A DNA stretch of 64,000 nucleotides from a virus. Taxonomy: Duplodnaviria; Heunggongvirae; Uroviricota; Caudoviricetes. The stretch is from the IMG/VR virus record IMGVR_UViG_3300006226_001702, positions 11,064 through 75,063 of that record. The stretch is one strand, 5' to 3'. A program made the translations under genes and the position numbers. Every line of letters starts with the position of its first letter. Positions within the stretch are counted from its first letter, which is position 1. This document shows, in pieces, positions 2,550 to 35,786 of the stretch. The notes beneath the pieces were generated by a model that was not told where the DNA came from, did no database searches, and saw only the letters and a program-made list of their open reading frames with translations.

Positions 2550-2555
2550 ATCATT

Positions 2556-2837: not shown

Positions 2838-2893
2838 AAGTTTTCTCCTTACTTACAACATATCAGCCTCCTTACGTTTTTATTTTAGATTAA

Positions 2894-3139
2894 CTATCTA
2901 CCAAAAATAGCTGCCAACGCAACCATTATGATTCCAATAAAAATTAGTAATCCCAGCCCAACTGCAGCTCCAATCCAAAGAGGGAAAAACACCCAGAACC
3001 AAGTTAACCAAGAGAAGTCGCCATTAAGCGCTCCTGCATTGTCCAAAAGTTTGAGTACAAGGAATACCACAAAGACTACTCCGCCCAAACCAATTCCACC
3101 TGACACTACGCGTGTTCTCTCTTCCATTTCAAACCTCAC
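2894..3139 (-). CDS. small membrane protein
   Basis: 81 aa with two long hydrophobic stretches (GGVVFVVFLVLKLL; FFPLWIGAAVGLGLLIFIGIIMVALAAIFG). Confidence 0.45.
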   Translation of the reverse strand: MRFEMEERTRVVSGGIGLGGVVFVVFLVLKLLDNAGALNGDFSWLTWFWVFFPLWIGAAVGLGLLIFIGIIMVALAAIFGR

Positions 3140-5954: not shown

Positions 5955-7331
5955 TTAGGCTGATTGCCCAATACAACCAGTCACCTTCCTTTTGCCGTAA
6001 TGTTTCACGGCCTCTATAATGTCTTGTTTTGATAAGCTATATTTTTTGAGTATCTTAAATGCTTTATTTAAAAGCCACACTACATCTTTGCGTTTCATTT
6101 CATATTCTTCAGATAGTTCGTCTACATCTTTATAGTTTTCTTTTATCCACCAATTTAGCATATTAGCTGGGTTCGGCTTGTTTGCTGGAATCCAAAATTC
6201 CTCATCTTCAAAAGCTGATGAAAGATGTGTTAAGAAGTCAGTCTCTTTTGGAGGTTCCGCAATGGCTTCGATTTCTCTTTCAGTTTCAGCCGCTGGGCTA
6301 CTACTCATCGCATTTAGATATGATGCAACTTTACTGTTGCCCAAATGTTGAATAGCAGTCATCAACTCTTGACCAGATATGTTATAGTCAGCAAGTTTCT
6401 TTTGAGCTGTATCCATTAAAGTTGCAGCTGAATTTCTTGAAATGCCAAACTTGGCACCCATAGCTCTAAACTCAGCTTTTGGATTTTCTATTATCTCGTG
6501 AAAGATATCTGCTGCTGTAACTCCTTTTGTGTCCTTTCTAAGTGCAGGATCTTGTACATAATTTTTCCATTTTTTTAGAAACTCTGTAGCATATAGATTA
6601 TCATCTACTTCCTTAAACGAATTTTCATAAGCTGCTTCGAATGTGTCATCTTTATAACCACGAGATGTGTGTGACATTGACTCATCATCCCATTCATTAT
6701 CATCAACATCACTATCATACCAAGTTGGTTCATACTGATGTACTTTAACTGATGCACTACCACCGGAAAGTTCCTTACCAGTAATGCCACCTGTGTCCTT
6801 TGACAAATTAGAATTCACAGCTGCATTCTTCAAAAGCATCTTATATTTATTAGCAAAAACTCCCATGATACTTTCTTCGGAGTTTTTACTGACATCAAAT
6901 CCACCAGTTCTTTCTCCGTCTTTATTAGTTGTACCAAAAAGAGCACTTGTTCCTTCTTTACTATTGAACTCATCGAAACCACCAGTGAGAACCATCCATG
7001 CTATTCCAAGCCATTGTTCCCATGCACTTTCATGTTGAATACGATAACGTCGCATTTCTCCTGATGGACCAAGATAATTTTTCCAGAATGCTTGCTGAAT
7101 AACAGGCTCCATTTTGTAGAAAAGATATTCTAAAGCACCCTTATCTTTCTTTTTTGCTGCTTCAAAAACCTCTTTATTACTCTTTCCAGCCCATTTATTT
7201 ATAGAAGAAGGCAAGACTATTTTAGCTACACTAAAATCTTTGGCAGTTTTATATCCTTCTAGTAGTTTTTGATGTCTAACTCGTTCTTTTATTTGAGTAA
7301 GCATCTGAAAATTAAGTTCGTCTAAGTTCAT
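5955..7331 (-). CDS. hypothetical protein, possible sigma-70-family-like regulator
   Basis: 458 aa; C-terminal LSEEYEMKRKDVVWLLNKAFKILKK resembles a sigma region 4.2 HTH; weak region-2-like segment; first gene of a minus block with the AACTAAATAATATG start context. Confidence 0.3.
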   Translation of the reverse strand: MNLDELNFQMLTQIKERVRHQKLLEGYKTAKDFSVAKIVLPSSINKWAGKSNKEVFEAAKKKDKGALEYLFYKMEPVIQQAFWKNYLGPSGEMRRYRIQHESAWEQWLGIAWMVLTGGFDEFNSKEGTSALFGTTNKDGERTGGFDVSKNSEESIMGVFANKYKMLLKNAAVNSNLSKDTGGITGKELSGGSASVKVHQYEPTWYDSDVDDNEWDDESMSHTSRGYKDDTFEAAYENSFKEVDDNLYATEFLKKWKNYVQDPALRKDTKGVTAADIFHEIIENPKAEFRAMGAKFGISRNSAATLMDTAQKKLADYNISGQELMTAIQHLGNSKVASYLNAMSSSPAAETEREIEAIAEPPKETDFLTHLSSAFEDEEFWIPANKPNPANMLNWWIKENYKDVDELSEEYEMKRKDVVWLLNKAFKILKKYSLSKQDIIEAVKHYGKRKVTGCIGQSA

Positions 7332-7923: not shown

Positions 7924-10152
7924 ATGGCTAAGATAAAAGAATCACAATATGTCAGTAATGCTAAACCGCAATCCCAAATTTTTAAGTCAAGCTTCAATAA
8001 GAGATTGTCAAGCTTGTGGGGGTGGCAAGGTGTTAAGCGAAAAGATGCTCAAACTGAATTTGAAAGAGCTAATGGTTTACGTCTCGTTAAGGTAGACGTT
8101 GGTAATGATGCATATAGAGTTAAACATGCTGCTCTTGGAAGCATATTCAAATCAGCTCCGTTAGCAACAACACTCAATAAATACTTCAATGCTTATATAA
8201 ATGAAACTACACTCGTTTATTCTGATATTGCTGAAAGACAGCAACGGCTAAATGAATTACGATTCATGGTGCTTAATGACCCATTCGTATCTCGAGTTTG
8301 TCGTCTCGTTTCGGATGAAGCAACTCAATTAGATGACCAAAACAGATTACTTTCAGTAGAAAGCCCATCAATTCCATTCGTTAACAAATGTTATGAATTG
8401 TTTTCCCAGTGGGGTTTGACACAACAACGCATTTCATCTGCTTGTTATGATGTAGAACAATATGGTGAAGCGCTCTGGGCTCATAGAGTTACAGACAAAG
8501 GTGTTGAAAGAATCATCCCATTGAAAGTTCCAATGCTCAAAGAGAGATTAGAATTCTCAGCCGTTCACATGGCAGAAGTTGTAGCTCAAATGACTGGTGA
8601 ACAGGAAATGATGAAGAACAGAGATTCTAAAATTGGCAAATTAGTCGACTTACTAACGACAAAAGAAGGCAATGAAGCACTCTCTGATTTAGATGACAAT
8701 TTTGCTGATATGTTTGATACGAAACTATTAGGCTTCGAATTTGCAGATGGCATCATGGTTCCACCTTGGCTAATTACACACTTCCGCTATCAAGCTGATA
8801 ATAGTGAGTTTTTCCCTTATGGATATCCACCACTTTTAATGGCGTTAGCACCATTCAAACAATGTTACAGCACAATGGCACTCCAGGGATTAGCAAGAGC
8901 TTCTTCATTCCCAGTTCAAGTGTACAAAGTTAAGGGCACTGAAGGTGTTGGTGTTGCAACTGCTTTTGAAACTGTCAATAGTGTTCGTGAAGACTATGAG
9001 AATATTGGTGTATCTCCAATGACTAACTCTCTAGAAGTTTACACAGTCAACACAAAAGTTTGGGTGCCAGATGGTTTACTTCAAATGGAAATCATCGAAT
9101 CAAAAGTTGATATGGACTTTACTGGTGACTTAGAGTTGTACCAAGATAGAGTTGCAACAGCTTGTGGTGTTCCAAAAGGTTACCTTGACCAAGAGTTTGG
9201 CGGGTTTGGACAAAGTGGTATCGCACTCATGGAACAGTACAAACCATTTGCTAGACATGTATACACAATTCAGTCTGCTTTCCTTGAAGGGTTAGGCCAA
9301 CTTATCAGATTACATTTTGCTATTACTGGTGAATTTGACTATAATATGCCATTCGTTTTGAGCATGAGATTCCCCGCTGAAGATATGGGTGAAGAAAAAC
9401 GCGAAGCTAGATCATCTTCAGTTGAATTAGCAAACAGTATCATCGAATTGTTACAAGGTGTTTTAGGTATGGAAGAAGGCGAAGCTCTTCCAGAAGATGT
9501 TGTTGCTGATATTCTTAGCAAATACACCTTCTTAGACCCAACTGATTTACAACGCTGGTTACGACTTTCTGCTATCGCTAAAGCTGCAGCTGCAGCAGCC
9601 TCTGATGACGCCGATGCTGATGGTGAAGGCGGAGATGATATGGGTGGCGATGACATGGGCGGAGACGATATGGGTGGTGATGATATGGGAGATGATGGCG
9701 GTGAACCAATGCCTGAATCCATATCAGCTCATGAGCGCGCTTATTATCTACGAACTAAAAAACGATTAGCTGAAAACTTGAAAAGAGAAAAGCTAAAAGT
9801 CATAAAAGAAGCTAAATTAAGAAGACTAAAAGAGATAACTGAAAGATACAATGAATGCAAAAACGAAATCTATTTCAGTTGGTTAGCCGAACAAAATCTA
9901 ACTGAATGGCAAAAACCTGGCATATCACATGAGATGCTAATTCCAAAGATAAACACAGCTTCTCCATTATATGAAATGTTCCAAGTGTTAGCTGATAAAA
10001 CAACTCCAATTGGTAGCAGCGGTAGAGCTAGACTAAAAGAAATGTCAGTTCAAGACATGTTAAATGAAAAGAAAGACAATAACATGAACTTAGACCAAAT
10101 GTTGGCAACCCCATTACGTGAGATAAGTGATATAGTCAAGGACAACGAATAA
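7924..10152 (+). CDS. putative portal protein with acidic (GGDDM)n repeat
   Basis: 742-aa protein with no Walker A, upstream of other large virion-like ORFs; acidic repeat-containing C-terminus is common in portals; call rests on size and position only. Confidence 0.3.
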   Translation: MAKIKESQYVSNAKPQSQIFKSSFNKRLSSLWGWQGVKRKDAQTEFERANGLRLVKVDVGNDAYRVKHAALGSIFKSAPLATTLNKYFNAYINETTLVYSDIAERQQRLNELRFMVLNDPFVSRVCRLVSDEATQLDDQNRLLSVESPSIPFVNKCYELFSQWGLTQQRISSACYDVEQYGEALWAHRVTDKGVERIIPLKVPMLKERLEFSAVHMAEVVAQMTGEQEMMKNRDSKIGKLVDLLTTKEGNEALSDLDDNFADMFDTKLLGFEFADGIMVPPWLITHFRYQADNSEFFPYGYPPLLMALAPFKQCYSTMALQGLARASSFPVQVYKVKGTEGVGVATAFETVNSVREDYENIGVSPMTNSLEVYTVNTKVWVPDGLLQMEIIESKVDMDFTGDLELYQDRVATACGVPKGYLDQEFGGFGQSGIALMEQYKPFARHVYTIQSAFLEGLGQLIRLHFAITGEFDYNMPFVLSMRFPAEDMGEEKREARSSSVELANSIIELLQGVLGMEEGEALPEDVVADILSKYTFLDPTDLQRWLRLSAIAKAAAAAASDDADADGEGGDDMGGDDMGGDDMGGDDMGDDGGEPMPESISAHERAYYLRTKKRLAENLKREKLKVIKEAKLRRLKEITERYNECKNEIYFSWLAEQNLTEWQKPGISHEMLIPKINTASPLYEMFQVLADKTTPIGSSGRARLKEMSVQDMLNEKKDNNMNLDQMLATPLREISDIVKDNE
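9628..9702 (+). repeat. in-frame 15-bp tandem repeat x5 encoding GGDDM
   Basis: ggcggagatgatatg/ggtggcgatgacatg/ggcggagacgatatg/ggtggtgatgatatg/ggagatgatggcggt; units differ at synonymous positions. Confidence 0.8.
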
Positions 10153-10175
10153 GTTTTTCTCATACTAAATATTAA

Positions 10176-12239
10176 ATGAATGTTTTATATGAAGCAAAAA
10201 TGGACGATTTCGTCACTTCTGGAATTACTAATAAGTCAATTCATAAAAAAGGTGTAGGAAGAAGCCGTTTAGTTAAAGCAATATTAAATTATCCAAACTC
10301 ATTACATATACTTTATGAGGTAGACTCTTCAGATGATGACAACGGTGCAAAACATTTCGCAGTAAATGGTCAGTCTCTATCATTTCTAAATAAAGGTTAT
10401 GCCTCACAGTTACATTTCACTGACATTCAAAATATAGTCCCGCCAAACTTTATGCAGTTACCTTACAGTCAGCAAGAACAAATCCTTCAACAAGTGTTTG
10501 ACCAAGCTGAAATGAAAGTTCAATGTGACTGCGGTTCATTCTACTGGCAGGGAATGTGGGAAAAAGACGCTGAAAAAGATAACACTTACTCTTCATTCAC
10601 TGGACAGCACGGAAAAGACATTTGGGCTGGCAGGCATAATGCAAGTGGCAATGTGCAAGGTCAACAATTATGTAAGCACTTGTGGTCAGTTGTTGAACAG
10701 ATAGAAGAAGACATCCCAGCCATTCTAAAGCTTATGGGTTCAAACACATCTTCTGCTTCTTCAACAGTTCAAGATGATGCACTCGAAGCACCTGAAAGTC
10801 CAGCTGGTGTTCCAGACGAAAGACCAAGATCAGAAGGTGGAATCAAATCAGTCAAAGCAGCCGATACAATATCTGCCGACATTAACGAGATCAAATCACG
10901 AGCTGAACAAAATGACTTGCCAACTATGGACTTATCTGCTGTTGAAAGTAAGCCTGTTGAAGGTGATGCTGATGTTGTGGAAGGTGCTGAAGATTATGAG
11001 CCACCAATTGAAGAGCCCAACAAGGCAGAAAACTTAGATGCAGATGCTACTGAAGATAAGATGTTAGAAGAGCCACTTGACACTAAAACGAAAAGTGATA
11101 TTGGTTTAGTTGAATCTTTTGAGAGGATCTATCAACAGTCATTGAGAGAAAAGAAAGACCACATCATAAACAAATTACCTCGTTTATCTAATACTGAAAA
11201 AGAAGAAGTCATCAACTTTTTTAAGAATCATTCTAACCTCGAAAACAAAATAGATTGGAATAACAAATCACTTACTATAAATGATTTTAGGCAGGTGATG
11301 AAATCTGTTGAAACTTCTCGTTCTGCTAAAAAGGCAGAAGTTAAAGCTGACTTAAGAGTTGCTTTTGATGATTATGTCAAAAATGGGGAAGCACACGTTT
11401 GGTTCGCCAATGACAAACTTATTTTAGTGTCACCATTAAGTTGGGCTTGTGCTCAATTTATGGATTCATATAACTGTTATGGTGAAGGCGCAAAATGGTG
11501 CATTGGAAAAGAAAATGACCCGCAACATTGGAATGATTATGTTTGTGAAAAAAGACAACAATTCATTATGTTATACGATGCTGTTGAAAAAACAAAGTTC
11601 ATGATTGAGCGTTCAAACGAAGAATACTATGACATTTGGGACGCGAAAGATAATCACATTTATGCTGAATCAAAAGGATTAGTTGATGCTGTTGAGCATC
11701 TTATTGGTGATAGAATAAATGAATTCCCAATACAAGAAATTGAAGCTGATGTAAATGAAGATATTGAAGAACTTTTTTATAATTGTGATTATGAAGAACA
11801 TGTAAATAACAGAGAAGAATTGGGTGAAGAATTAAATGAATATTACATAGAGGAACTTCTAAAAGGCAGAGGCGAAAGTGAATTAGAAAGTCCAATAAAC
11901 TTATTTCCAACTTTAATGTATGAAATTAGAAAAAGAGGTGAGGGAATAGCTGATGAAGATGAAAATGAATTAGCCGATGAAGTTCTAGTTAGTGTTACTA
12001 ATACAGTTATTGCAACATTTCACAATGAAGTTAGAGCAGGTAGGCCAGTTGATGATGAATGGATGGTTGACTTGTATGCTGCCGACAAAGTTGATGTTGA
12101 TGGTGAAATATCTGAAAAGGATAGAGAGACATCACGAGAAGCTTGGTACGATAAAAAACGAACACTCTTAATGGATAAAGAAAGATCTTATGGACAACAG
12201 TTCTTGTTTGAATCTATTTACAGGAAGAGCCATGAATAA
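10176..12239 (+). CDS. hypothetical protein with SWIM-type zinc finger and acidic regions
   Basis: CDCGSFYW...CKHLW (CxCxnCxH); long acidic stretches; contains SFERIYQQSLREKK motif. Confidence 0.5.
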   Translation: MNVLYEAKMDDFVTSGITNKSIHKKGVGRSRLVKAILNYPNSLHILYEVDSSDDDNGAKHFAVNGQSLSFLNKGYASQLHFTDIQNIVPPNFMQLPYSQQEQILQQVFDQAEMKVQCDCGSFYWQGMWEKDAEKDNTYSSFTGQHGKDIWAGRHNASGNVQGQQLCKHLWSVVEQIEEDIPAILKLMGSNTSSASSTVQDDALEAPESPAGVPDERPRSEGGIKSVKAADTISADINEIKSRAEQNDLPTMDLSAVESKPVEGDADVVEGAEDYEPPIEEPNKAENLDADATEDKMLEEPLDTKTKSDIGLVESFERIYQQSLREKKDHIINKLPRLSNTEKEEVINFFKNHSNLENKIDWNNKSLTINDFRQVMKSVETSRSAKKAEVKADLRVAFDDYVKNGEAHVWFANDKLILVSPLSWACAQFMDSYNCYGEGAKWCIGKENDPQHWNDYVCEKRQQFIMLYDAVEKTKFMIERSNEEYYDIWDAKDNHIYAESKGLVDAVEHLIGDRINEFPIQEIEADVNEDIEELFYNCDYEEHVNNREELGEELNEYYIEELLKGRGESELESPINLFPTLMYEIRKRGEGIADEDENELADEVLVSVTNTVIATFHNEVRAGRPVDDEWMVDLYAADKVDVDGEISEKDRETSREAWYDKKRTLLMDKERSYGQQFLFESIYRKSHE

Positions 12240-12567: not shown

Positions 12568-12944
12568 AAACATTTGAACAAATATACCAATTAAGAGAAG
12601 ACAAAAAACCATTCGTTGGTGATTGTAGAGATTTAGAAGTGTCAAACAATTTACCATGGGAAGATACAACTGAATGTGCTAATGACTTAGGTTATTGGGC
12701 TAGAATGGATGAATATGATGGCAGTCCAGAAGATAGTAATTACGAAAAAATAACAAAAGAAGAATTTTGGGAAGCTTGCGAAAGACATAGAAACCCACAA
12801 TTTGATTGGGAAAGAAAAGCTAAAGATTACACAGATGACTGGGATGAATACATTGACGGAGATAAAATCTATCTCAAACGATATGACGGAAACATTTATC
12901 TAATTTATGATGAAAACGAAGACGTTCATTATTTTTGGTGGTAG
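12564..12944 (+). CDS. hypothetical protein (N-terminal MKTFEQIY motif)
   Basis: 126-aa ORF, ATGA-coupled to upstream gene. Confidence 0.5.
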   Translation: MKTFEQIYQLREDKKPFVGDCRDLEVSNNLPWEDTTECANDLGYWARMDEYDGSPEDSNYEKITKEEFWEACERHRNPQFDWERKAKDYTDDWDEYIDGDKIYLKRYDGNIYLIYDENEDVHYFWW

Positions 12945-12946
12945 TA

Positions 12947-14329
12947 ATGAAGTTATTTGAAGAAATCTACACTGGATATCGTGGAATGTCAGGTGGTAGT
13001 GATGAAGGCAAAAACTTCTGGGAGCCAGGAGAATTTGATAAGCTCACTTCAAAAAAATCAGTGGGAAAATGGTACTCATCAGACCCAGAAGTTGCTGAGT
13101 GGTACGGTGATGGGAAAGTTATTAAGAACACATTAGAATTTGACGACCCAATGATTGTTGATGCTGAAGGTTCTGACTATCACAACATACAAATTGATGG
13201 AAAAAGATACAATTCAGATAAACTATCTTTAATGGCTCATGAAGATGGCCATGATGGATTAGTTATAGAAAATGTTAAGGACCCAAAAATAGTTGCTGAT
13301 ACTTATGTTGCATTAAAACCTAACACAATTAAAGAGTCAAAATTATTTGAACAGATATATAGAAGCAGCAAATTGTACTATCACATCTCTCCAAATAAGT
13401 TTGACAAATTTGAAAGACGAAACTCTTTTAGAAAAGGAGATGGTGCTGAAGAGTTAGGTGGGACATTTTTAACTCCACAGCTTTATATGATTAATGCTTA
13501 TTTCGCTAATTATCTTTCAACTAAACATAAGAGAAAAGAATATTATCTATACTACTGCAAATTGAAAAAAGACTTAAACATCTTTAATCCATCATCTAAG
13601 AAAGATAGAACATTATTGATTGATAAAATTAGAGAAAATCCAAATCAGTTTTTCTTGAATTATTCTATTAAACAACCACGAGCTGTTCTTCCAGATTTGA
13701 AAAGAGAGTTAGCCTCAATGTTTCGCTCACATAATTGGTCTCAAATAGAAAATCCAGAACTTACTAAAATGATTAAGAGCCTTGGATTTGATGGCTATGT
13801 TTCTCAAGAAAATGAAGTGGGAAATATCATGGTGTTTGACCCAACTAATATTGAAATAGTTAGAAGCAAATCAATGAAAGCAGAAGACTTAAAAGATAGT
13901 TGGTCAGAAAAAGCTTTTTCTAAAGATGAGTACGAACAAATAAATGATAGATACAAATGGAAAGACGAAAAAGAAAATAGATGGGACTCAGTTGATGATA
14001 ATGAGTTCAACGACTTAAAATATACGACATCAGATATTTATGAGATAACTACAGACACTGACTTAGAACCATTCGATCTACTTTCTATGGTCGACAATGA
14101 TGGTAAAATAATCACTAACAAAATGAGAGACGTTTTAGACCCAGCGATTCATTATGCTAAAAAGTTTTTCTTTGACGGAAAAGAATTTGATAGCGTTAAC
14201 GAATTAGAAAAACATCTTGTCAAAACTTTTGGAAAAAGTGATAAGGAGTGGGGCGAAGTTTTCTCTGGAATGCTTGGCGAAGATGATGAAGACGAGCATG
14301 ACGCTGGTGATGGTGACTTAATCTTTTAA
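12947..14329 (+). CDS. hypothetical protein (two copies of LFE(E/Q)IY motif)
   Basis: Track ORF 12935..14329; start placed at MKLFEEIY to match the N-terminal motif pattern seen in paralogous contexts; internal second copy SKLFEQIYRSS. Confidence 0.5.
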   Translation: MKLFEEIYTGYRGMSGGSDEGKNFWEPGEFDKLTSKKSVGKWYSSDPEVAEWYGDGKVIKNTLEFDDPMIVDAEGSDYHNIQIDGKRYNSDKLSLMAHEDGHDGLVIENVKDPKIVADTYVALKPNTIKESKLFEQIYRSSKLYYHISPNKFDKFERRNSFRKGDGAEELGGTFLTPQLYMINAYFANYLSTKHKRKEYYLYYCKLKKDLNIFNPSSKKDRTLLIDKIRENPNQFFLNYSIKQPRAVLPDLKRELASMFRSHNWSQIENPELTKMIKSLGFDGYVSQENEVGNIMVFDPTNIEIVRSKSMKAEDLKDSWSEKAFSKDEYEQINDRYKWKDEKENRWDSVDDNEFNDLKYTTSDIYEITTDTDLEPFDLLSMVDNDGKIITNKMRDVLDPAIHYAKKFFFDGKEFDSVNELEKHLVKTFGKSDKEWGEVFSGMLGEDDEDEHDAGDGDLIF

Positions 14330-15230: not shown

Positions 15231-15674
15231 CTAAAGGACTTTTCTCATTATAACACAGTCATTTACAGGTAATTCTTGATAGCCAAAACGTTGATAGTAG
15301 CTGATTAGTGAGGGATTTCTCGTTTGTAAAGTTATTGATGATAATTGAAGTGATCTAGCAATTCGTTCTAAGTCCTGCATAATAGTTGACCCAACATTTT
15401 TTCCACGAAACTCTGGGAAAACTTCAATGCATGAAAGATGTAGAGAATTTGGTAACCAATAATTGTTAGAAAGACAGATAATAGCAGTGGGGATTCCTCC
15501 AGTGTAAATGCTATCAGTTACTTCTGATAAACATTCAAACCATGAGAATTTAGTGTTGTCATAATATCCATTTCCTTTGACTCTATTTGGTCCAAGGTAC
15601 TCAAATATTAGCGGGAGTTCCTTCTCCCAATACTTCAGTTCGATGTCCGTCGCTGGAATCTTCACGTACTTCAT
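15231..15674 (-). CDS. GNAT family N-acetyltransferase
   Basis: Motif A-like VFPEFRGKNVGSTIMQDLERIA (acetyl-CoA binding R/QxxGxG/A). Confidence 0.65.
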   Translation of the reverse strand: MKYVKIPATDIELKYWEKELPLIFEYLGPNRVKGNGYYDNTKFSWFECLSEVTDSIYTGGIPTAIICLSNNYWLPNSLHLSCIEVFPEFRGKNVGSTIMQDLERIARSLQLSSITLQTRNPSLISYYQRFGYQELPVNDCVIMRKVL

Positions 15675-16086
15675 TTTCTTCCTTCAATTTGTTAATAACT
15701 TCTAATAAAATCTCTGGGTGCACTTTTTCATAAAAAGTTTGTTGCTTTAAAAAGTCACAAGCTTCTTCATATGTAAAAGTGTAAGGTTGATTATTTAGAA
15801 ATTCATACAGTTTCTCAAACGGCATGTAATTGTACTTACATAACTCAGAGGCTGCTTTAATCCTCAATTTACAATTTTCATTTTTAGTTAACTCAAATAT
15901 GCTCTGTTCTCTCTCAATAAATTTGTAAGCCATATCTGAAATTAACATAGTTTCGGATAATCTTGGTCCCCCATATTGCTCACACATTTTGATGATATCT
16001 TTTAATGCTTTGCCATATTCTTCAAAGTTATTACGATGAGAATTCAAAAGTGAGGCTTCTCTAAGTTTTAAGTCTTTTAATGTCAT
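15601..16086 (-). CDS. hypothetical protein
   Basis: 161-aa ORF; first gene of minus block with AACTAAATAATATG start context; 3' end overlaps the GNAT ORF by 74 nt. Confidence 0.45.
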   Translation of the reverse strand: MTLKDLKLREASLLNSHRNNFEEYGKALKDIIKMCEQYGGPRLSETMLISDMAYKFIEREQSIFELTKNENCKLRIKAASELCKYNYMPFEKLYEFLNNQPYTFTYEEACDFLKQQTFYEKVHPEILLEVINKLKEENEVREDSSDGHRTEVLGEGTPANI

Positions 16087-16111: not shown

Positions 16112-16675
16112 ATGAATCTAAATAGAATCCGACATTCTACAGTTCAATCACGATTAGCAATGGTGCAAGACAGAGCTAGAAGAAAGTTAATCGATAACTC
16201 ACTCTTTTGGATAAGCAACCCAACTGACTGCATTAGAATGAGAATGAGAGAGAACTTTGAGGGAGATGCTATTTCCTGGATAGTTGAAAAGGCAGATGTC
16301 ATTTCAGCAGTTTTTCCACCTCTCACTGATGTTCCTTATAGAAAAGTCAATGTTGACCCAGTTACTAGAGCATGGAGTTTGACCTCATTAGTATCTGCTT
16401 TTGAAGATGATGCTCAAGAGAAATTCTATACGTTACAGATTCCATTTGAGTTTGATATAAATGCTAAAGATTTGTTGTTCAGAATTATGTTAGATGAAGC
16501 TCAAAAGTTTCCAATTATTATACCAATAATGTGTCAAGAATTATTAGGAACTTTTGGCGGTATGATGATAATAATGAATAAAGTAAAATGCACTATACCT
16601 ACAGATACTATACCACAGGAAATAGTTGACACTATTCATCAAATGGCGTTGCGTAGACAGATTATTAGATATTAG
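16112..16675 (+). CDS. hypothetical protein
   Basis: 187-aa ORF, start in ACTAACTATTATG context. Confidence 0.5.
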   Translation: MNLNRIRHSTVQSRLAMVQDRARRKLIDNSLFWISNPTDCIRMRMRENFEGDAISWIVEKADVISAVFPPLTDVPYRKVNVDPVTRAWSLTSLVSAFEDDAQEKFYTLQIPFEFDINAKDLLFRIMLDEAQKFPIIIPIMCQELLGTFGGMMIIMNKVKCTIPTDTIPQEIVDTIHQMALRRQIIRY

Positions 16676-17756: not shown

Positions 17757-18528
17757 ATAAGCTTATTGTTTTCTTTAATTTGTCTATTTCTTCTTGTTGT
17801 TTAGATATTAACTCGTCTCTCTCATCAGTTATAGTTAAGCCTTTTTTGATTATCTCATTAAAGTCACAATTTACGTTGCATTCCCATAGACATTTTCCAC
17901 ATCCACCTTGATCAGGTTCAAATGGGTCTTTTTTCAAGTTAACTTTCCAATGAGTATGTCTTCTATGTACATCGTCAAACTTCTCTTTTCCCATTGGACA
18001 AGAACATCTTTTATGTTCTAAATCATCTATCTTAATTAAGCCATGGAATCTAATTCTCACATCAAACATTTTGAAAGTTATCCAATGTTTAATATCTTTG
18101 AAAGTTTGAGATGCTTTTATATTATCTTTTAATCTGTTTAATGGGAAAGGCAATTTACTAATTACATCTTTTCTGTCTAATGATTTGTTAATTCTTGCAG
18201 CAAACTCATCACAGTCTTCTTGTGTTAAATCATACAAACCTTTTAACCAAAAATGTAATTTATTATCATATAAAGAAGGATCTCCATGATTTGATTCAAT
18301 AACCCATTTAGTGCTTTTTGGAATGTACATCATCCAATAAAACTTATTATATTGAACTATGTTATTTGCTGTAATAAAAACCCAAGGTGTATGTTTATGA
18401 CTGCCACTTCCAAAGTGTCCACTTGATGTATAAATACCAGGATTTCTGTTTATAGCCCGAACTAATTCTCTCATTTCTGGGTCTATCTTTTCGTAATCAA
18501 TTTTCTTCTTTTTTCTTTCAAGTGTCAT
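17725..18528 (-). CDS. hypothetical protein with Cys/His-rich segment
   Basis: 267 aa; HKRCSCPMGKEKFDDVHRRHTHWK and CGKCLWECNVNC clusters. Confidence 0.45.
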   Translation of the reverse strand: MTLERKKKKIDYEKIDPEMRELVRAINRNPGIYTSSGHFGSGSHKHTPWVFITANNIVQYNKFYWMMYIPKSTKWVIESNHGDPSLYDNKLHFWLKGLYDLTQEDCDEFAARINKSLDRKDVISKLPFPLNRLKDNIKASQTFKDIKHWITFKMFDVRIRFHGLIKIDDLEHKRCSCPMGKEKFDDVHRRHTHWKVNLKKDPFEPDQGGCGKCLWECNVNCDFNEIIKKGLTITDERDELISKQQEEIDKLKKTISLYASLDGELFE

Positions 18529-18840
18529 TTCTTTTCCTTCTTGTAATTACTACATTCTGTTATAATGACTTCTAAAACTTCGTTATCAATTTCAACTTTG
18601 TCTTTGTGTTCACATTGATTCCTGCAATCTACACATTTACTTTTACTTTTCATAAATCAACCCACTTTTTTAGACAGGCATAATAAACTGGAATAGTTAA
18701 AAAATAGAAAATGAATGACCAACCAGTTTCAAACTGTAATGAAAAATGTGCGGGAGCAATTACACATAACCAAGATAAAATAATGAATCCAGACACTTTG
18801 AGCATCATTAAAAATGCTCTATAAACATTATAAATAAATA

Positions 18841-19725
18841 TCATTTTGGTATCAAGTTCCTATATTCTAAATTTGTCCCATGTTTTTTATTCCATTTTTC
18901 TAATTCAGTAGTTATATCATATTGCTCAATGTTTATTTCAACTCCATGATCATAATAATGTTCTGGATTATCCAAATCAGCTTCAACAACATCAATGTAC
19001 ATTCTTAAATCAAAATATGGTTCCCTATGTTCCAATGAAAGTTGATTTAACAGAGCATATATAACATCTTTTTCTGGTTTATAAACATAAAGAGACAAAC
19101 TATCATGAACATAATTATAGATTCTACTTTGGAATTCCCATTCAACTAATAAGTTATTCATAGCAGTAACATCTGGCATCGCTTGAAATACTTCAGCCGT
19201 TTGAATAGTTGTGTTACTTGCTTCATTCTTCATTCCAGAAAACATTTTGGAATAAAGTTTGACATCTACACCAACTAGATTATCTCTTGCATTTCTTTTT
19301 AGATAACGAAACTCTGGAAAGTGACGAACTGGCCCACTCCAAGTTCGAGCATAACCATGTTTCATCGCAAATTTTTGTTCTCTAGTTACACGCTCTAATA
19401 ATCCAGGATAAGTTTGAAAGAATAAATCTCTTAATTTATTTCCAACAATCATATACTTTAATTCAGCAATACTTTTTCCTTTTGTGTTTCCATAAATTGC
19501 ATTATCCAAAGCAGGTTTCAACTTAAATGTGTCAATAGTTAAATCACAATCATGTTCCGAGAACCCAGCCTGTTTCATTTGACGTCCAAGAGTTGGACCT
19601 GTGCAAGCAAATATTGTTGATAAGTTAACTGTCTTTCCATCAAATCTCATTTTCTTAAATGGAGGAAAACCTTTTAAGACTAGAAAATCTTGTAATGTTA
19701 TTTCTCGTTTCGTTATTTTATACAT
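18841..19725 (-). CDS. DNA polymerase I family, C-terminal fragment (motif C region)
   Basis: YNYVHDSLSLYV resembles PolA motif C (VHDE); overlaps the upstream pol ORF by ATGTATAA. Confidence 0.55.
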   Translation of the reverse strand: MYKITKREITLQDFLVLKGFPPFKKMRFDGKTVNLSTIFACTGPTLGRQMKQAGFSEHDCDLTIDTFKLKPALDNAIYGNTKGKSIAELKYMIVGNKLRDLFFQTYPGLLERVTREQKFAMKHGYARTWSGPVRHFPEFRYLKRNARDNLVGVDVKLYSKMFSGMKNEASNTTIQTAEVFQAMPDVTAMNNLLVEWEFQSRIYNYVHDSLSLYVYKPEKDVIYALLNQLSLEHREPYFDLRMYIDVVEADLDNPEHYYDHGVEINIEQYDITTELEKWNKKHGTNLEYRNLIPK

Positions 19726-21802
19726 AATCTAAAAATATGTCCTCTTCAGTAAATTCTTTTCCCTTGATAACAAGTTCTTTTTCATCATCAACTAATCCTA
19801 ATCTCTTAATCTTTATTTTCTGCTCTTCACCAAAGATAATCTTTTTTCCATTATCATCTTCAATTTCAATAACTTGCATATGAATTGGTGCACAGAATAC
19901 TCCATGAGTTGTCATTGAGTGAGCATCTTGACAACCATCGGGTCCATAAATATCATAAGCAATTTTATCAACACCATTTGGGTTTATTCCACAATCACAA
20001 AAAGCTAAGATTAACTGAAGTGACCTAAAGTCGGCATTGACTAATAGCCAATCAGATTTAGATTCTCCGACTAAATCATCTTCAATTACATTTGGTGGAA
20101 CTGTGAATAATCTTTTTATGTATGGAGCAATTTCACCACGAGATGGAATCTGTTGGAAGTTTGGATCATTCATTGCATGTCTAAATGATTCAGTACCGAA
20201 TGTGTTACAGTTTGGATGAATTCTCCAAGTTCCATCTGGATGTTCGAATAACCATTTTTTCCAACCTTCAATAAATGTTCCTAATGCTACATTATATGAA
20301 CGAAGTTTCTTTAACTCTTTTATTCCAGGTTTATTTAATAATTCATATTCAGTTAAAACGTCATCAGATGTTTTATAGCCTCCATCTTTTGCTTCGGCTA
20401 TTTTTTCCCAACCCATATCCTTAAATAATTGTCCAAGTTTTTTAGTTGATTCAAACTCAAAAGTTTCTTGAACACCCCATTCAACTGCTAATTTCTTTTT
20501 TAAGTCAACTATTTTTTCTTTAATTGCTTTTTCAGAGATATCAAATTGGTCTTTATTTACATAAACACCTTTATATTCAACATCAGTTACAACATTAGCA
20601 TTTGGAATCATTACTTCTTTATAGAATTTTTTAATTGTCCAAGTTGGGTCTTTTTCATTTGGATATTTTTTATCTAATTTTTCTACATGTTTATCTAAAG
20701 CCTTTTGTAATCTCCAAGTTACTATTGGGTCAAGGCCTGCATATTTATGTAAAATATCTTTTGGAATTTGTAGATAATTTTCGACTTTTAATCTCTTTTT
20801 TGCTAAATCTAATTCATGTTCATAACCAGTAAACTTTCCACAATAAAATATTGCACCAGATTTTAAGCTCTTCGAACGATTTGAATTAAGAGCATGAGAT
20901 AATAAAACTGTGTCATCAGTTGGTAACCAGCCAGTTACACCATTTCTCCAAATAAACTTTGTATCAAATTTTGCATTTGCTAAAGTCAATCTTTTTGCTG
21001 ACATTAAAACTTTTTTTAATAATCTTTTATCAACATTTTCCCAATCAAAAACATACCCAGTTTCACCATCATTAGATAAACTTAAAACACCAAGTCTATC
21101 TTTTAAGAATGATAATCCACTCGTTTCAGTATCTGCTGCTAATAAAACAGAGTTCTCTAAAAGTTTTAGATATCTTGATGAATCTTGTTTATCCTCAGCA
21201 TAAATTATTTTATAATCTCTCATGTCAAGATTTTTAGTTGACATATCATCTTTTTGAATACGAGCTAATTTGTCATAAAAAAATCTAGTGAGAAAATTAG
21301 TTGGGTCATTACTTAAATCAATTGGGTATAAATCTCTAATTGGAGCAACTGGATAAACCCATCTGTCTGGGCCATTAATGAATTCTTTTCCACACCAATA
21401 TCTTGGTTCATTAAAAACATCATCTAAAAAATCATAATAATTTACATCACCAGATTTATTTAAGACACGAAGTGCTGGGCCGAATGCAATTACACACTCA
21501 CATTCAGTTCCATCAAATGTTAGATATTGTCGCCAATTACTTTCTAAAGATAAGAGTTCTTCTGTTGAATCATTTTTTGGATCTTTTACTGATATTACAG
21601 AAACGATGTTATATGATTTGATGCCATATCTATCAATATCTTTACAAAGAATGTCAAGATAAACTTTATGTAGAATATTATCAACCAAGAATAAAAAATA
21701 TTTATGTCCTGGTTGATAATTTTCTTTTAATAAAGCATCAAATTTCTCTAAGTTTTGTTTTGGTCTTTCGCTTGCACGAACATTACCGAATTGAAATGCC
21801 AT
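19718..21802 (-). CDS. DNA polymerase I family, N-terminal fragment (3'-5' exonuclease + motif A)
   Basis: Exo I motif LLAADTETSGL; PolA motif A analogue NADFRSLQL (cf. DYSQIELR / T7 DASGLELR). Confidence 0.7.
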   Translation of the reverse strand: MAFQFGNVRASERPKQNLEKFDALLKENYQPGHKYFLFLVDNILHKVYLDILCKDIDRYGIKSYNIVSVISVKDPKNDSTEELLSLESNWRQYLTFDGTECECVIAFGPALRVLNKSGDVNYYDFLDDVFNEPRYWCGKEFINGPDRWVYPVAPIRDLYPIDLSNDPTNFLTRFFYDKLARIQKDDMSTKNLDMRDYKIIYAEDKQDSSRYLKLLENSVLLAADTETSGLSFLKDRLGVLSLSNDGETGYVFDWENVDKRLLKKVLMSAKRLTLANAKFDTKFIWRNGVTGWLPTDDTVLLSHALNSNRSKSLKSGAIFYCGKFTGYEHELDLAKKRLKVENYLQIPKDILHKYAGLDPIVTWRLQKALDKHVEKLDKKYPNEKDPTWTIKKFYKEVMIPNANVVTDVEYKGVYVNKDQFDISEKAIKEKIVDLKKKLAVEWGVQETFEFESTKKLGQLFKDMGWEKIAEAKDGGYKTSDDVLTEYELLNKPGIKELKKLRSYNVALGTFIEGWKKWLFEHPDGTWRIHPNCNTFGTESFRHAMNDPNFQQIPSRGEIAPYIKRLFTVPPNVIEDDLVGESKSDWLLVNADFRSLQLILAFCDCGINPNGVDKIAYDIYGPDGCQDAHSMTTHGVFCAPIHMQVIEIEDDNGKKIIFGEEQKIKIKRLGLVDDEKELVIKGKEFTEEDIFLDYV

Positions 21803-21811
21803 AATATGATA

Positions 21812-22492
21812 TTAACTGTCTTCTTCAATCTCAGTTATAGTCAGTATCTCTTTTGCACTTTTTTTCAATGGTAATATGATTCTTAGAATTCCCCTATGTA
21901 ATTCAGTTTTCATCTTTAATTTGTCATACATATCAAAATCAATAAAGAATTCTGCCTTAATTTCGTTTTTGATTCCATAACAAAGAAATTCAAAATCATC
22001 ACCAATTAAGTCATCTTCATCATCAATTTTTGCTGATAATAATAACTTATTATCTTCAGTACTTAATTTGATTTCTTCTTTTGAAAATCCCGCACAACAA
22101 ATCTCATATATCAAATTATCTTTATAATCTTTTTTGATATTGTAAGGAATTTTTGTATCAACTATTTCCTTATCAACTTTGTTTGGAAGATTTTTGATTA
22201 ACTCTCGATAATTCTTTAAGTCATCTAATTCAAGTGGCTTGTACTCATAATGACCTTTTTGCCAGCCACCTGTGTAATCATTGATATTTGGTTCAATATG
22301 CTGTGGTGTGTATGGAGCAATCCAAACTGGTTTTCCGACTTGGTAATCACCTGTTGTAAAACTTGGGTTATAGACATATTCATTTACTGCACTGTCTCCA
22401 GTGTTTGAATGATAAGTAACTTTTACAGATGAATTGACTTGTGTGTTGTGAGAAGTCCCGACTAATGCTTGAAATTTTTCTTTAGCATTCAT
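21812..22492 (-). CDS. Hsp20/alpha-crystallin family small heat-shock protein
   Basis: C-terminal AGFSKEEIKLSTEDNKLLLSAK...FxxxFxLP..IxxxxxxAxxxNGILRIILPLKK pattern; start moved to MNAKEKF, which has an AAGGAGG RBS. Confidence 0.6.
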   Translation of the reverse strand: MNAKEKFQALVGTSHNTQVNSSVKVTYHSNTGDSAVNEYVYNPSFTTGDYQVGKPVWIAPYTPQHIEPNINDYTGGWQKGHYEYKPLELDDLKNYRELIKNLPNKVDKEIVDTKIPYNIKKDYKDNLIYEICCAGFSKEEIKLSTEDNKLLLSAKIDDEDDLIGDDFEFLCYGIKNEIKAEFFIDFDMYDKLKMKTELHRGILRIILPLKKSAKEILTITEIEEDS

Positions 22493-22713
22493 AACGCAAT
22501 GCCTCCTTATATGTTTGAGTCCAGTTACGCAACTCATAATATTTAGTTAAAAAATGGGACTCCAGGTCTATATTCCGCCTCCTGAAGTTATCCCCGGACT
22601 GTTTTCCGCATCCGTTTTTAAATTCCTTACTAATTGAGCTCCCCCAAACTTTCAGGATAATTTTAGATTAACTTAAAAAAGAATTGGCATATTCTCATGA
22701 CAGATTGCTTGGA

Positions 22714-23400
22714 CTATTCATATATGTGAATTCCACCTCTATTATATAAATAAGTTCTTGATTTACAACCAATTTCTTTTAACGCTAATGTTACATTATT
22801 ATATAAAACACCATCAAATAAAAATTTTGATACCTTTTTTCTTGGTCTTAAAATTCCTTTTTGTGAACTAACATTAGTTCTTCCTCTTTTATAATTTTCA
22901 CCAGGACAATCATTTGACCATGTATCAATTTCTCCATTAGTCCACCAATGATAATTTTTATCTTTTAATGTTTCTTTTCTTTTTTTAATAGATTCATCTG
23001 TAATAATTCTATTTTTCATATAAGCCGATGCACCTGGATTAGGTTTTCCTTTATTAGGAGGTTTTCTTCCTTTATTTAATTCACTCATATATTCACTATG
23101 TTTTTCTCTTAATTCAGCATATTCATCATGACTTAATATAGTATTATTTTGTTTATCATAAATAAGTCTATTATAAGCACACCACATTCCCTTTCCATAA
23201 ATATAAGCTAATAATTTATGAGCATCAACATGCTCCTTTGCTGTTAATAAAACTATATTACTTTTTCTTTTTTCCCATAATGGAAATAAAGCCTTCGGTA
23301 AAATATGATGTTTTTCATAATAGATATTATCATTCTTTTTTCTATTTTCTAATAAAGCCTTTTTAATTATTTTTATATAATCTTGTTTAATACTTTTCAT
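22714..23400 (-). CDS. HNH homing endonuclease
   Basis: YYEKHHILPKALFP...NIVLLTAKEHVDAH (HH..P...N...H HNH core); very AT-rich gene next to thyX. Confidence 0.65.
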   Translation of the reverse strand: MKSIKQDYIKIIKKALLENRKKNDNIYYEKHHILPKALFPLWEKRKSNIVLLTAKEHVDAHKLLAYIYGKGMWCAYNRLIYDKQNNTILSHDEYAELREKHSEYMSELNKGRKPPNKGKPNPGASAYMKNRIITDESIKKRKETLKDKNYHWWTNGEIDTWSNDCPGENYKRGRTNVSSQKGILRPRKKVSKFLFDGVLYNNVTLALKEIGCKSRTYLYNRGGIHIYE

Positions 23401-27539: not shown

Positions 27540-28117
27540 TTTCTAGTCCTAAATTTTCCTAATGATGTTGTTTCTAATATTTCACATTGAACACTATCCA
27601 TTCTTTTTCCATATATGCTAACAATATCACCAACTTGAGCTCTTGCAATTTTTGACATTATTTCTTTAGTGGATTCTTGAAAACCTTCATAATCGTCATC
27701 ATCACCAAAAAGGTCACCCTCTTTAATGAGATTAGCAAAATCTAAAATGTTACCAGTAAACTCATAATCATCATCACCTAATTCTATCCAGTCGCCTTCA
27801 CGATACATTAAACTTGGTGGTAATAAACAATTTGGGTCCATAACTCTAATTCTTGCTTCAACATCTCTCATTCTTTGAGGTTTAGATTCTCTTAATGATT
27901 TCTGATAAACTTTTTCAAAGTCCATAGATTCTCCTAAATAGTCTTCACCAAACATTTCTCTACCTTTTGATACACCAGCTTTGAGATACTGTAAAACTCC
28001 AATAAGCTTCATTATATCATCATCAGATAAATCTGGGTCATCTAAAGCATTTTCAATTACATCAAGAGCATCATTTGAATCTTTTGCTAATTTGATATAC
28101 TCTTCTACTGATTTCAT
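27536..28117 (-). CDS. hypothetical acidic protein (MDFEKVYQKSLRE motif)
   Basis: 193-aa ORF, ATGA-coupled. Confidence 0.45.
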   Translation of the reverse strand: MKSVEEYIKLAKDSNDALDVIENALDDPDLSDDDIMKLIGVLQYLKAGVSKGREMFGEDYLGESMDFEKVYQKSLRESKPQRMRDVEARIRVMDPNCLLPPSLMYREGDWIELGDDDYEFTGNILDFANLIKEGDLFGDDDDYEGFQESTKEIMSKIARAQVGDIVSIYGKRMDSVQCEILETTSLGKFRTRK

Positions 28118-29487
28118 TATTTGTTAGCCTTATAGTCATCACATCTACATGGGTCATGTCCACAATCTTCACAATCTTTTCCAGTTGGCTTTTTAGCTTT
28201 TTTCTCTTTTTTGCCAGCTTTGTAATATTCTTCATATTCCTTACATCTACAAGGACTGTGTCCACAATTATCACATTCTTTACTTTCAGTAAGAGGTGCA
28301 GTTGCTACTTGATTGGCTGCCTGATTTGCAACTTTCGCTGCTTTTTTAGCTTCCTTAGCAGCTTCTTTTGCATTTTTTTCTGCAATTAAAGCAAATAATT
28401 TATCGCATGCTTCTTGCCTAGCAACTGGGTCTTTAATTAAACAGAATTGATGAGCTATTCCTTCGTAATCAATATTCTTACGAGGACCGCCTTCTCTTAA
28501 ACTATCATTATATATCTCATTAAAGTTTATGCTTTCATTATATTTTTGCTCATTATCAAAATTAGCTGCATATGTACATTTAATATTTGCACCTGGTCTA
28601 CCACCAATGTATCTTAAAGCTTTTTGTATTTTGTCTTTATTATCTGGGTCTTTTATGTTGCCTGCAAATTCTGGGCCTCTTGTGCTTCCATCAACAAAAA
28701 CTTGGAAAGTGTTTGCTCGCTTAACAGATGCCTTTTTCGGTATAATGTCTTCTTTTAATTGATTTTGATTTATGATTTTTTCTAAGAGTTTATCTTGTTT
28801 TTCAGTAAGTTTACCAACAATTTTTGCGCTGTCTTCACCCTCGCCTGTTGCCTTTGCAAGAAGTCCCAATGCTTTTGAAACTGATGCATCATCAACTGGA
28901 CTAAATGGTGCTGTTAAGTCTCTACCACCAGCCTTTGCTTTGAAAATTCCAAATTCATGAAGTTGTCTCTCACCTAATGGAGTTAAACCTTCTTCAGCAG
29001 CAGCTGCATCCATTTCTGACCAGTCTTCTTCGTCATCATCGTAATATTCAAATTCGGCTTCGTCATCTTCATCATCCCATTCAAAATCACCATCATGACC
29101 ACCAGTTGCAAAATACTCTTCTTCGTCTTCATCAGTTGGGTAATCTCCACCCATTTCATCGAAGTCATCATCGTCATCAAATGGGCCAATTCCTACACCA
29201 TTCTGTCTATCATCGTAAATTTCTGGATATAAGTCAGCATCAGATTCTTCATCATCTTCGTCATCACCATAACCACGATAAGACTGCTCACTCTCATAAG
29301 CTGCTCTTTGGTCTGGGTTCATCCATCCTATATCGCTTGCGTCATAAGACATTTCATCATCATCTTCAAATAATTCAGGTGCATCAAATTCTTTTGCTGC
29401 GGAAGGAACGTCATAAGTTTCTAACTCATCTTCGAAGGTCATATCGTCAAGGGCAGGATCCCAATCTTCTTTTAAAGGTTTCATCAT
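28117..29487 (-). CDS. highly acidic protein with two C-terminal CxxCGHxPCRC repeats
   Basis: N-terminal 170 aa very rich in D/E/Y; C-terminus CDNCGHSPCRC ... CEDCGHDPCRC. Confidence 0.5.
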   Translation of the reverse strand: MMKPLKEDWDPALDDMTFEDELETYDVPSAAKEFDAPELFEDDDEMSYDASDIGWMNPDQRAAYESEQSYRGYGDDEDDEESDADLYPEIYDDRQNGVGIGPFDDDDDFDEMGGDYPTDEDEEEYFATGGHDGDFEWDDEDDEAEFEYYDDDEEDWSEMDAAAAEEGLTPLGERQLHEFGIFKAKAGGRDLTAPFSPVDDASVSKALGLLAKATGEGEDSAKIVGKLTEKQDKLLEKIINQNQLKEDIIPKKASVKRANTFQVFVDGSTRGPEFAGNIKDPDNKDKIQKALRYIGGRPGANIKCTYAANFDNEQKYNESINFNEIYNDSLREGGPRKNIDYEGIAHQFCLIKDPVARQEACDKLFALIAEKNAKEAAKEAKKAAKVANQAANQVATAPLTESKECDNCGHSPCRCKEYEEYYKAGKKEKKAKKPTGKDCEDCGHDPCRCDDYKANK

Positions 29488-35174: not shown

Positions 35175-35786
35175 CTATGAAAGAAAAGCGGGTGGTCGAG
35201 CTAACTTTTCTAATAAGTTATTGTCTCGATCAAATTTTAAGTGTATGTATTTTCTGCTTGCTAAATAGTCTGCTAAATGTAACATTTGTTCATCGAATTC
35301 TTGTGGTGTGGGAGTATTACCTGATTTGTCTCTTGCTGCGTCCCATCTTCCCATGTGGCTTGCGCATAATCTTGCTTCTTCAGATAGACCAACTTCATCT
35401 AATTTGTCGGCTATATCTTTGGCATGATGTTTTGATGTATATTCACTTTCATCAGTTGCATATTTGTAAGCATCATGAGCAATTGCTGCAATTACGAGTG
35501 AGTCTTGATTTAGTTGTGGGAATGCATCACATATCGTCATTACGAATTTGACTACAGCTTTAGTGTGTCGTGATAGACCAAAATCTCCTTGTGAGTATTC
35601 TGGGTGGTATTTTCCAGTAGAAGAAGCTTGACCTGCAATATTTTTATATGCAGCTGTTCTCAAAACGTTCTCTAATTTTGCTCTTTTTTCTTTTGATTGA
35701 ATTAAGTCTAATTCTTTCATGTAAATTTTAACATTTGGTGACTCAAGCATGAGTGCTTCTTCATAGATTCTCTGGAACGTTTTCAT
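35175..35786 (-). CDS. HD-domain phosphohydrolase (paralog A)
   Basis: SSTGKYHPEY...LSRHTKAV...AAIAHDAYKY (H, HD, D metal ligands); N-terminal MKTFQRIY. Confidence 0.65.
   Translation of the reverse strand: MKTFQRIYEEALMLESPNVKIYMKELDLIQSKEKRAKLENVLRTAAYKNIAGQASSTGKYHPEYSQGDFGLSRHTKAVVKFVMTICDAFPQLNQDSLVIAAIAHDAYKYATDESEYTSKHHAKDIADKLDEVGLSEEARLCASHMGRWDAARDKSGNTPTPQEFDEQMLHLADYLASRKYIHLKFDRDNNLLEKLARPPAFLS

Follow-up and report, generated by a model that had tools for sequence, protein, structure and literature searches.

A naturally split and probably heterodimeric family-A DNA polymerase in a large uncultivated phage

A polymerase gene in two overlapping ORFs

We analyzed a 64,000-nucleotide (nt) stretch of DNA from the Caudoviricetes record IMGVR_UViG_3300006226_001702 (positions 11,064 to 75,063), here called the window, which has a G+C content of 34.9%. 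The subject is a family-A DNA polymerase (PolA) gene on its minus strand that is divided between two overlapping open reading frames (ORFs). An earlier note on this DNA had described ORFs of 694 and 294 amino acids (aa) that overlap by 8 nt and had proposed either a two-subunit PolA or a programmed or sequencing frameshift. We found both ORFs and the overlap as described. The features of the locus are as follows.

19718..21802, minus strand: ORF1 (the "N+A" subunit), 694 aa
18841..19725, minus strand: ORF2 (the "C" subunit), 294 aa
19718..19725, minus strand: ORF1/ORF2 overlap ATGTATAA, 8 nt
21218..21802, minus strand: N-terminal degenerate UDG-like domain of ORF1, a family-4 UDG fold ahead of the exonuclease and polymerase
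20684..21202, minus strand: 3'-5' exonuclease domain (PF01612), ORF1 residues 201-373
20012..20038, minus strand: motif A NADFRSLQL, ORF1 residues 589-597, in which D591 corresponds to Klenow D705
19721..19894, minus strand: C-terminal β-rich insertion of ORF1, residues ~637-694, which follows the helix-N equivalent (…THGVF) and ends in the conserved …DIFLDYV
19702..19725, minus strand: ORF2 N terminus MYKITKRE, of which MYKITK is kept in most C pieces down to ~45% identity
19609..19647, minus strand: motif B (O-helix) RFDGKTVNLSTIF, ORF2 residues 27-39, placed by the C-piece family profile against Klenow
19096..19113, minus strand: motif C YVHDSL, ORF2 residues 205-210, aligned to Klenow H881-D882-E883

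ORF1 holds the UDG-like domain, the 3'-5' exonuclease, the thumb, the N-terminal palm, motif A, the first fingers helices, and the β-rich insertion. Its alignment to the Klenow chain covers residues 12-377. ORF2 holds the O-helix with the remaining fingers and the palm strands with motif C. The polymerase family profile PF00476 has 381 positions; ORF1 matches positions 6-165 (3.5e-17), and ORF2 matches positions 238-356 (1.2e-7; 31.5 bits, just below the 34.3 cut-off). The two matched parts are complementary and do not overlap. The PHROGs family phrog_17 is likewise covered by adjoining segments, positions 646-1070 by ORF1 and 1057-1254 by ORF2, and ORF1 also matches PF01612 (5.7e-10). By these profile matches, ORF1 and ORF2 together make up one complete family-A polymerase. 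As judged from the alignments, the break lies between motifs A and B, inside the polymerase domain (profile position ~165-238 of 381), because motif B is located in ORF2.

Residues for catalysis and for substrate binding are conserved in ORF1 as well as in ORF2. In ORF1, the exonuclease residues are D224 and E226 (Exo I, in the sequence AADTETSGL), N276, F279, and D280 (Exo II), and Y354 and D358 (Exo III). All seven are invariant in alignment A3, which includes fused relatives, as are D591 and Q596 of motif A. Q596 (window ~20015-20017) takes the place of Klenow E710, the steric gate of motif A. This position is Gln throughout the clade and also in many unsplit relatives (DYSGLQ).

The earlier note had found motif B of ORF2 poorly recognizable. 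This was wrong: when profile A1 is aligned to Klenow, R27, K31, L35, and F39 correspond to R754, K758, F762, and Y766. Within alignment A1 of the C pieces, R27, K31, and F39 are invariant; the 762 equivalent is Leu in the window and Phe in many relatives. The AADTETSGL, NADFRSLQL, and YVHDSL strings that the note had assigned are all present in their ORFs, and its reading of motif C as HDS in place of HDE holds for nearly the whole family. H207 and the catalytic D208 are invariant among C pieces, and S209 (codon at 19099-19101), which replaces the Glu equivalent to E883, is at least 90% conserved.

The note had missed two parts of ORF1, the UDG-like domain and the β-rich insertion. Neither of the UDG catalytic motifs, GE[AG]PG (GEAPG) and HP[SA] (HPS), was found in ORF1 residues 1-195. 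This UDG fold therefore looks inactive, like the N4-like state. ORF1 has the N-terminal UDG fold that defines the UDG-PolA class, to which an enzyme can belong with or without active motifs.

The junction on the minus strand reads ...GAT TAT GTA TAA, and ORF2 begins with ATG TAT AAA 5 nt before the ORF1 stop. The ORF2 frame is +1 relative to that of ORF1 and has a TAG two codons upstream of its ATG. A T-rich stretch, ATATTTTTAG, lies just upstream of the overlap. The frames are offset by one nucleotide, so that one indel would be enough to join ORF1 to ORF2.

The same break in relatives

In every relative recovered from the window's own clade, the split falls at the same residue, as it does in over 100 protein clusters from the wider family. 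At 36-77% identity to the window, the upstream piece stops after …[DE][YH][VA] (…DYV in the window), and the downstream piece starts with MYKITKR…. The nearest relative of the window polymerase has 68-77% identity. Three IMG/VR contigs (108-329 kb; L001, L002, and L003) carry both halves at 62-77% identity with the same-residue break. Of 21 distinct relative loci, duplicates not counted, 18 contained an N piece together with a C piece (or an A+C fusion).

The arrangement around the break varies widely. The halves are separated by 33 nt in L014, 160 nt in L002, and 545 nt in L001. About 2.5 kb of variable genes separate them in L010 and L011 and in the ~215-235-kb gut phages that DAL61182.1 represents. 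The order is reversed in L005-L007 and L020-L026, where the C piece is encoded upstream of the N piece. L017-L019 encode motif A in a separate 124-aa piece that lies 3-4 kb away from the C piece on the other strand, and no N piece turned up within 10 kb. In the L020-L026 lineage, motif-A pieces were not located by tblastn or by regular expression. The 8-nt overlap is seen in the window only; the relatives have gaps, inserted genes, or a changed order or strand.

In L003, a complete LytB/IspH gene (PF02401, 1.7e-61) lies exactly between the halves, at 8088-8930 (the L015 region) of the 329-kb jumbo-phage contig 3300010167_000010. LytB/IspH is 4-hydroxy-3-methylbut-2-enyl diphosphate reductase, an unusual isoprenoid-pathway auxiliary gene. 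On the 12.5-kb contig of L019, tblastn aligns the C piece from 1877 (1877-2926, plus strand) and the longest ORF starts at 2027 with TTG. This copy may contain a frameshift or stop, or the assembly may be in error.

Protein searches gave the same picture. None of the 45 ORF2 homologues in a collection of 5.8 billion proteins is a full-length polymerase: 43 are 166-357 aa long and have no N-terminal half, and the other 2 are A+C forms of 465-469 aa. In an exhaustive profile search, 39 of the 60 best cluster representatives were stand-alone proteins that begin at the split site. ORF1 has 35 homologues, and the ~685-701-aa forms among them stop at the same residue. Among 50,697 cultured-phage records, tblastn found no match to ORF2 and only matches below 27% identity to ORF1. 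These comparisons indicate that the gene has truly undergone fission and that the split is no sequencing error, because the same-residue break recurs with varied spacers, inserted genes, gene orders, and strands.

Fused forms and a second breakpoint

A few fully fused relatives also exist (P0078 and eight others, 987-1057 aa). They are colinear with the concatenated window proteins over the junction and have 10-24 additional residues as a linker; no sequence has therefore been lost at the break. In alignment A3, the Exo motifs, the motif A Asp, the motif B Arg and Lys, and the motif C His-Asp are invariant. P0078 has 187 relatives, and the majority end at the window's site with a length of ~680-735 aa.

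Many relatives have a second break, "site 1," just before motif A. This gives three genes: an N piece of ~613-640 aa, a motif-A piece of ~120 aa, and the C piece. L008 is such a three-piece form (621, 120, and 305 aa), in which two opposite-strand genes and a 184-aa gene intervene. It is syntenic with the window, with ThyX and a 251-aa gene followed by the polymerase. P0030 and P0035 are joined at the window's site and broken at site 1, and in P0072 site 1 holds an in-frame insertion of ~100 aa.

A neighbor-joining (NJ) tree of 184 N-regions is dominated in its large superclade by the split state, with fused forms at 5 or more separate nested positions. In the window's own clade, forms with two pieces are mixed with forms that have three. 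Ordinary unsplit phage PolAs (845-1000 aa, without the insertion) form a separate clade. Therefore, as judged from an NJ tree, the fused and split states have toggled repeatedly, whether by fission, by fusion, or by both. The window is one member of a large clade whose polymerase gene is fragmented at two hot spots.

P0202, a 491-aa protein of the representative library seen without genomic context, has a C piece at residues 1-301, a ~70-aa linker, and a motif-A piece at ~373-467. It is possibly a circular permutation (C-A) of the polymerase core. The two opposite-strand ORFs between the N and motif-A pieces of L008 (8844-9362 and 9397-10173, minus strand) look paralogous by eye. The first has a sub-threshold match to ART-PolyVal, the ADP-ribosyltransferase of polyvalent proteins (4e-6; 28.1 bits, cut-off 31.2).

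The insertion at the break

The break sits in a β-rich insertion of ~75 residues, specific to the clade, that separates the equivalents of helices N and O in the fingers. From THGVF to R27 of ORF2 there are 84 residues, 58 at the end of ORF1 and 26 at the start of ORF2. The equivalent Klenow stretch, anchored on the profile alignment, is 10 residues long. The insertion is kept in fused relatives. The ORF1 insertion has no Pfam match, and no Hint or intein domain was found in the insertions even at E values up to 10.

We built an AlphaFold2 (AF2) model of the concatenated ORF1 and ORF2 on a 10-sequence alignment. The model can be superposed on the entire Bst/Klenow large fragment (Foldseek E 9.4e-18, target-normalized TM 0.74, ~770 columns). 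It thus points to an overall Klenow-like fold, with the exonuclease and with thumb, palm, and fingers, in the concatenated chains. Predicted strands in the ORF1 tail span residues 641-648, 654-656, 662-666, and 676-680. A further strand is predicted at concatenated residues 696-702 (ORF2 residues 2-8; block pLDDT ~75-79), and the O-helix follows. We propose that this MYKITKR strand of ORF2 is a docking element that would pair with strands of the ORF1 insertion, because it is strongly conserved at the new N terminus.

Homing endonucleases and a probable origin of the split

Homing endonuclease genes are found in or beside the gaps of several relatives. In L011, an HNH gene (9117-10196; phrog_559, 6.5e-48) lies in the gap and abuts the stop of the N+A gene, and another homing endonuclease gene (12593-13549) lies beside the C piece. 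In L019, a GIY-YIG gene (1046-1855) is directly upstream of the C piece. Further such genes lie beside the pieces in L019 (6857-7495) and L004 (2160-2927). The window has one two genes upstream of ORF1 (22714-23400, minus strand; phrog_655, 4.4e-32), and its junction itself has none.

A route to intein-less fractured genes has been described, in which an endonuclease invades and is later lost and the pieces may disperse (Dassa et al. 2009, PMC2677866). The fission probably arose in this way, by homing-endonuclease gene fracturing, and later loss of the endonuclease gene would have left the compact overlap.

A probable heterodimeric polymerase and its alternatives

We conclude that ORF1 and ORF2 very probably form a heterodimeric family-A replicative polymerase, naturally split, in this large uncultivated phage. 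The Hsp20-like gene just upstream would be transcribed together with ORF1 and ORF2. Translation of ORF2 would occur by termination-reinitiation at ATGTATAA and would yield roughly equal amounts of the two chains. The chains would then assemble noncovalently, with the N-terminal MYKITKR strand of ORF2 docked on the β-insertion at the end of ORF1. The resulting polymerase would have a composite active site, shared by the two chains. Of the two explanations in the earlier note, the two-subunit PolA is thus supported, by the same-residue break in its varied arrangements. The frameshift, whether programmed or a sequencing error, is incompatible with the inserted genes, permuted order, and opposite strands of the relatives.

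Several points weigh against a heterodimer of this kind. The replacements of E710 by Q and of E883 by S mean that the activity could differ from that of canonical Pol I; this concern is lessened by the presence of Q in many unsplit relatives and of HDS in the polymerase of the cultured phage MEP401. The window phage may make a minor fused product by frameshifting. The AF2 model has low confidence (mean pLDDT 58, pTM 0.50), and the strand docking at the junction is our inference from it. The link to homing endonucleases is circumstantial.

The alternative that survives best is gene decay, in which the fission inactivated the polymerase and the ORFs are remnants or have a nonpolymerase role. The E710Q and E883S changes replace two active-site carboxylates and would fit this reading. 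However, both pieces have been retained and conserved over a clade that has diverged to ~36% identity, and they co-occur in most of the relative loci that have enough flanking sequence (18/21). There is no variation in the aspartates of motifs A and C, in the Arg and Lys of motif B, or in any Exo motif, and unsplit relatives and MEP401 also have these Q and S variants. We consider decay unlikely.

Production of a single fused, functional polymerase by a programmed +1/-2 frameshift or a bypass is a weaker candidate. Such an event would have only ~10 nt available, from the in-frame TAG to the ORF1 stop. No recognizable slippery or stimulatory element lies there, although the overlap is compact and the T-rich ATATTTTTAG is just upstream. 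Moreover, the overlap is not conserved, and the halves are distant or reordered in relatives. This makes a frameshift very improbable.

We give hardly any weight to a sequencing or assembly indel in what is truly one 988-codon ORF. The one-nucleotide difference between the frames, the 8-nt overlap, and the existence of rare fused relatives would all fit an indel. However, independent assemblies from many samples share the same-residue break and its conserved termini but vary in spacer (33 nt to 2.5 kb), inserted genes, gene order, and strand, and the in-frame TAG stands two codons before the ORF2 ATG.

Rejoining of the halves by a split intein or, at the RNA level, by an intron is similarly far-fetched: phage polymerase genes often host inteins or group I introns, metagenomic fractured genes with split inteins are known (PMC2677866), and the β-rich insertion is superficially Hint-like, but the Cys after …GVF is not conserved (Val in L001), the ORF2 start is not a C-intein ending in HN plus Cys/Ser/Thr, the whole insertion stays in the mature chain of fused relatives and has no Hint match in Pfam, Rfam at its gathering threshold finds no intron in or between the polymerase genes of the window, L001, L002, L003, L008, and L014, and the window has no intervening sequence at all.

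Comparison with known systems

Family-A enzymes, of central importance to biotechnology, are the textbook case of single-chain polymerases. Split replicative polymerases as such are already known. The split family-B polymerase of the chimallivirus phiKZ forms a stable, active 1:1 complex of DNAP-N and DNAP-C, in which one chain supplies the aspartate of motif A and the other that of motif C (Basu et al. 2026 preprint, PMC13648687). As in the window, a replicative polymerase comes from two genes, with the break in a lineage-specific insertion domain built from both chains. However, the phiKZ enzyme belongs to family B, has its break in a palm insertion, and is encoded by genes that are far apart, whereas the window polymerase belongs to family A and is broken in the fingers. 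Assembly and activity were shown experimentally for phiKZ, whereas we infer the assembly of the window polymerase.

In S-SBP1-like T7-like cyanophages, PolA is split into exo and pol genes, a split called the first in PolAs (Czernecki et al. 2023, PMC10201439). This is also a family-A fission into adjacent cistrons, with the new start close to the stop, and those authors concluded from AF2 that the products associate. It differs in that the break separates the exo and pol domains and leaves each catalytic site on one chain. In the window, the break is inside the polymerase domain, after motif A.

The cultured OM43 phages MEP401 and MEP402 have their polymerase in two ORFs (ORF13 and ORF15), for which an intron was suspected (Microbiol Spectr 2023, PMC10580990). 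In our own translation, MEP401 ORF13 ends just before motif A and ORF15 starts with MILNADAKALEW…, the equivalent of site 1. This is a family-A polymerase split inside the pol domain, and its motif C is also HDS. However, it belongs to another PolA lineage (no tblastn match), has neither a UDG domain nor the β-insertion, and carries motifs A, B, and C on one chain. We considered MEP401 ORF14 as a motif-A mini-subunit and rejected it; motif A sits at the start of ORF15.

Genes fractured by homing endonucleases without inteins include gp43 of Aeromonas phage 25 and nrdA of Aeh1, and T4-like gp43 splits are known (reviewed by Dassa et al. 2009, PMC2677866). In phage 25 and Aeh1, essential replication genes are broken into two cistrons at the endonuclease insertion point and the halves reconstitute the enzyme; the window's relatives L011, L019, and L004, with homing endonuclease genes in or beside the gaps, resemble them. 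The window differs in having no endonuclease gene in its gap, a family-A host gene, and a clade with two breakpoints and permuted orders. Group I intron-interrupted polA of the SPO1/Bastille type was rejected as a model, there being no intervening sequence and no Rfam intron.

Described UDG-PolAs (N4-like cluster 17, the SPO1 group, and the phiLo polymerase with the solved structure 9qhs) share the N-terminal family-4 UDG fold, often with its catalytic residues lost. Unlike the window polymerase, the described members are single-chain, and their similarity to it is below phmmer detection. In open-access text, we found no family-A split between motifs A and B, no three-piece form, and no permuted form.

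In the window, the two metal-binding aspartates and the O-helix are on different chains, whereas the only PolA split analyzed in the searchable literature separates exo from pol. For the engineering of Pol I enzymes that are split or assemble conditionally, the break sites offer split points that are natural and already tested by evolution. A clade with so many fission/fusion toggles lets homing-endonuclease gene fracturing be studied. There is also a warning for annotation: ~300-aa and ~120-aa ORFs called "hypothetical" or "partial DNA polymerase" in large phages are subunits, not pseudogenes.

A bolder proposal, which we regard as doubtful, is that these phages form a large undescribed UDG-PolA clade with a modular core, in which two or three chains are joined at β-rich docking insertions and fragmentation is kept because it is useful. 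One chain would hold the N-terminal, exonuclease, and thumb parts, another would be a motif-A mini-subunit of ~120 aa, and another would carry motifs B and C. Possible uses would be the destruction of homing-endonuclease target sites, regulated or exchangeable assembly of the fingers and palm, and tuning of nucleotide selectivity. If this were true, the fusions and fissions, the permuted orders, and P0202 would be footprints of an evolvable multisubunit family-A replicase rather than a neutral scar.

Expression and neighboring genes

Our scan of 18400-22700, which includes the region between the cistrons, found promoter-like sites at chance rate and no terminator. No well-placed Shine-Dalgarno sequence precedes ORF1 or ORF2; GAGGA lies 14 nt upstream of ORF2. 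Most other window genes have AAGGAG at -9 to -16 or a conserved ACTAAATAAT that abuts the ATG. The Hsp20-like gene just upstream of ORF1 carries this ACTAAATAAT motif, and it may form an operon with ORF1 and ORF2, with termination-reinitiation at ATGTATAA. The earlier note had seen a coupling arrangement in the overlap. Translational coupling is plausible for the window only, because the relatives lack the overlap.

The gene directly upstream of the polymerase (21812-22537, minus strand) encodes 241 aa with a C-terminal Hsp20/alpha-crystallin domain (PF00011, 1.6e-4, above the cut-off). L001, L002, L003, and L008 have a 247-289-aa ORF at the same position whose C terminus is like the window's by eye. 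The product may be a phage small heat-shock protein whose gene is cotranscribed with the split polymerase.

A conserved motif, TTAACTAAATAAT (variants ACTAAATATT, ACTAACTAAT, and ACTAATTATT), stands directly before the start codon in about one-quarter of the long window ORFs. Examples from the ~10 ORFs preceded by it are the following.

5955-7331, minus strand: ORF preceded by the motif
10176-12239, plus strand: ORF preceded by the motif
15601-16086, minus strand: ORF preceded by the motif
16112-16675, plus strand: ORF preceded by the motif
21812-22537, minus strand: the Hsp20-like gene
22714-23400, minus strand: the homing endonuclease gene
28117-29487, minus strand: ORF preceded by the motif
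35175-35786, minus strand: ORF preceded by the motif
35814-40409, plus strand: ORF preceded by the motif
42988-45975, plus strand: ORF preceded by the motif

Two divergent gene pairs have near-palindromic intergenic regions made of this motif, common to both genes. The motif may be a phage promoter that yields leaderless or very short-leader mRNAs.

Elsewhere, L014 has a match to a truncated group I intron (RF00028, 55.6 bits) at 16339-16459 on the minus strand, at the contig end and far from the polymerase genes. The window has three tRNA genes, at 2477-2549, 54995-55067, and 55722-55794, all on the minus strand.

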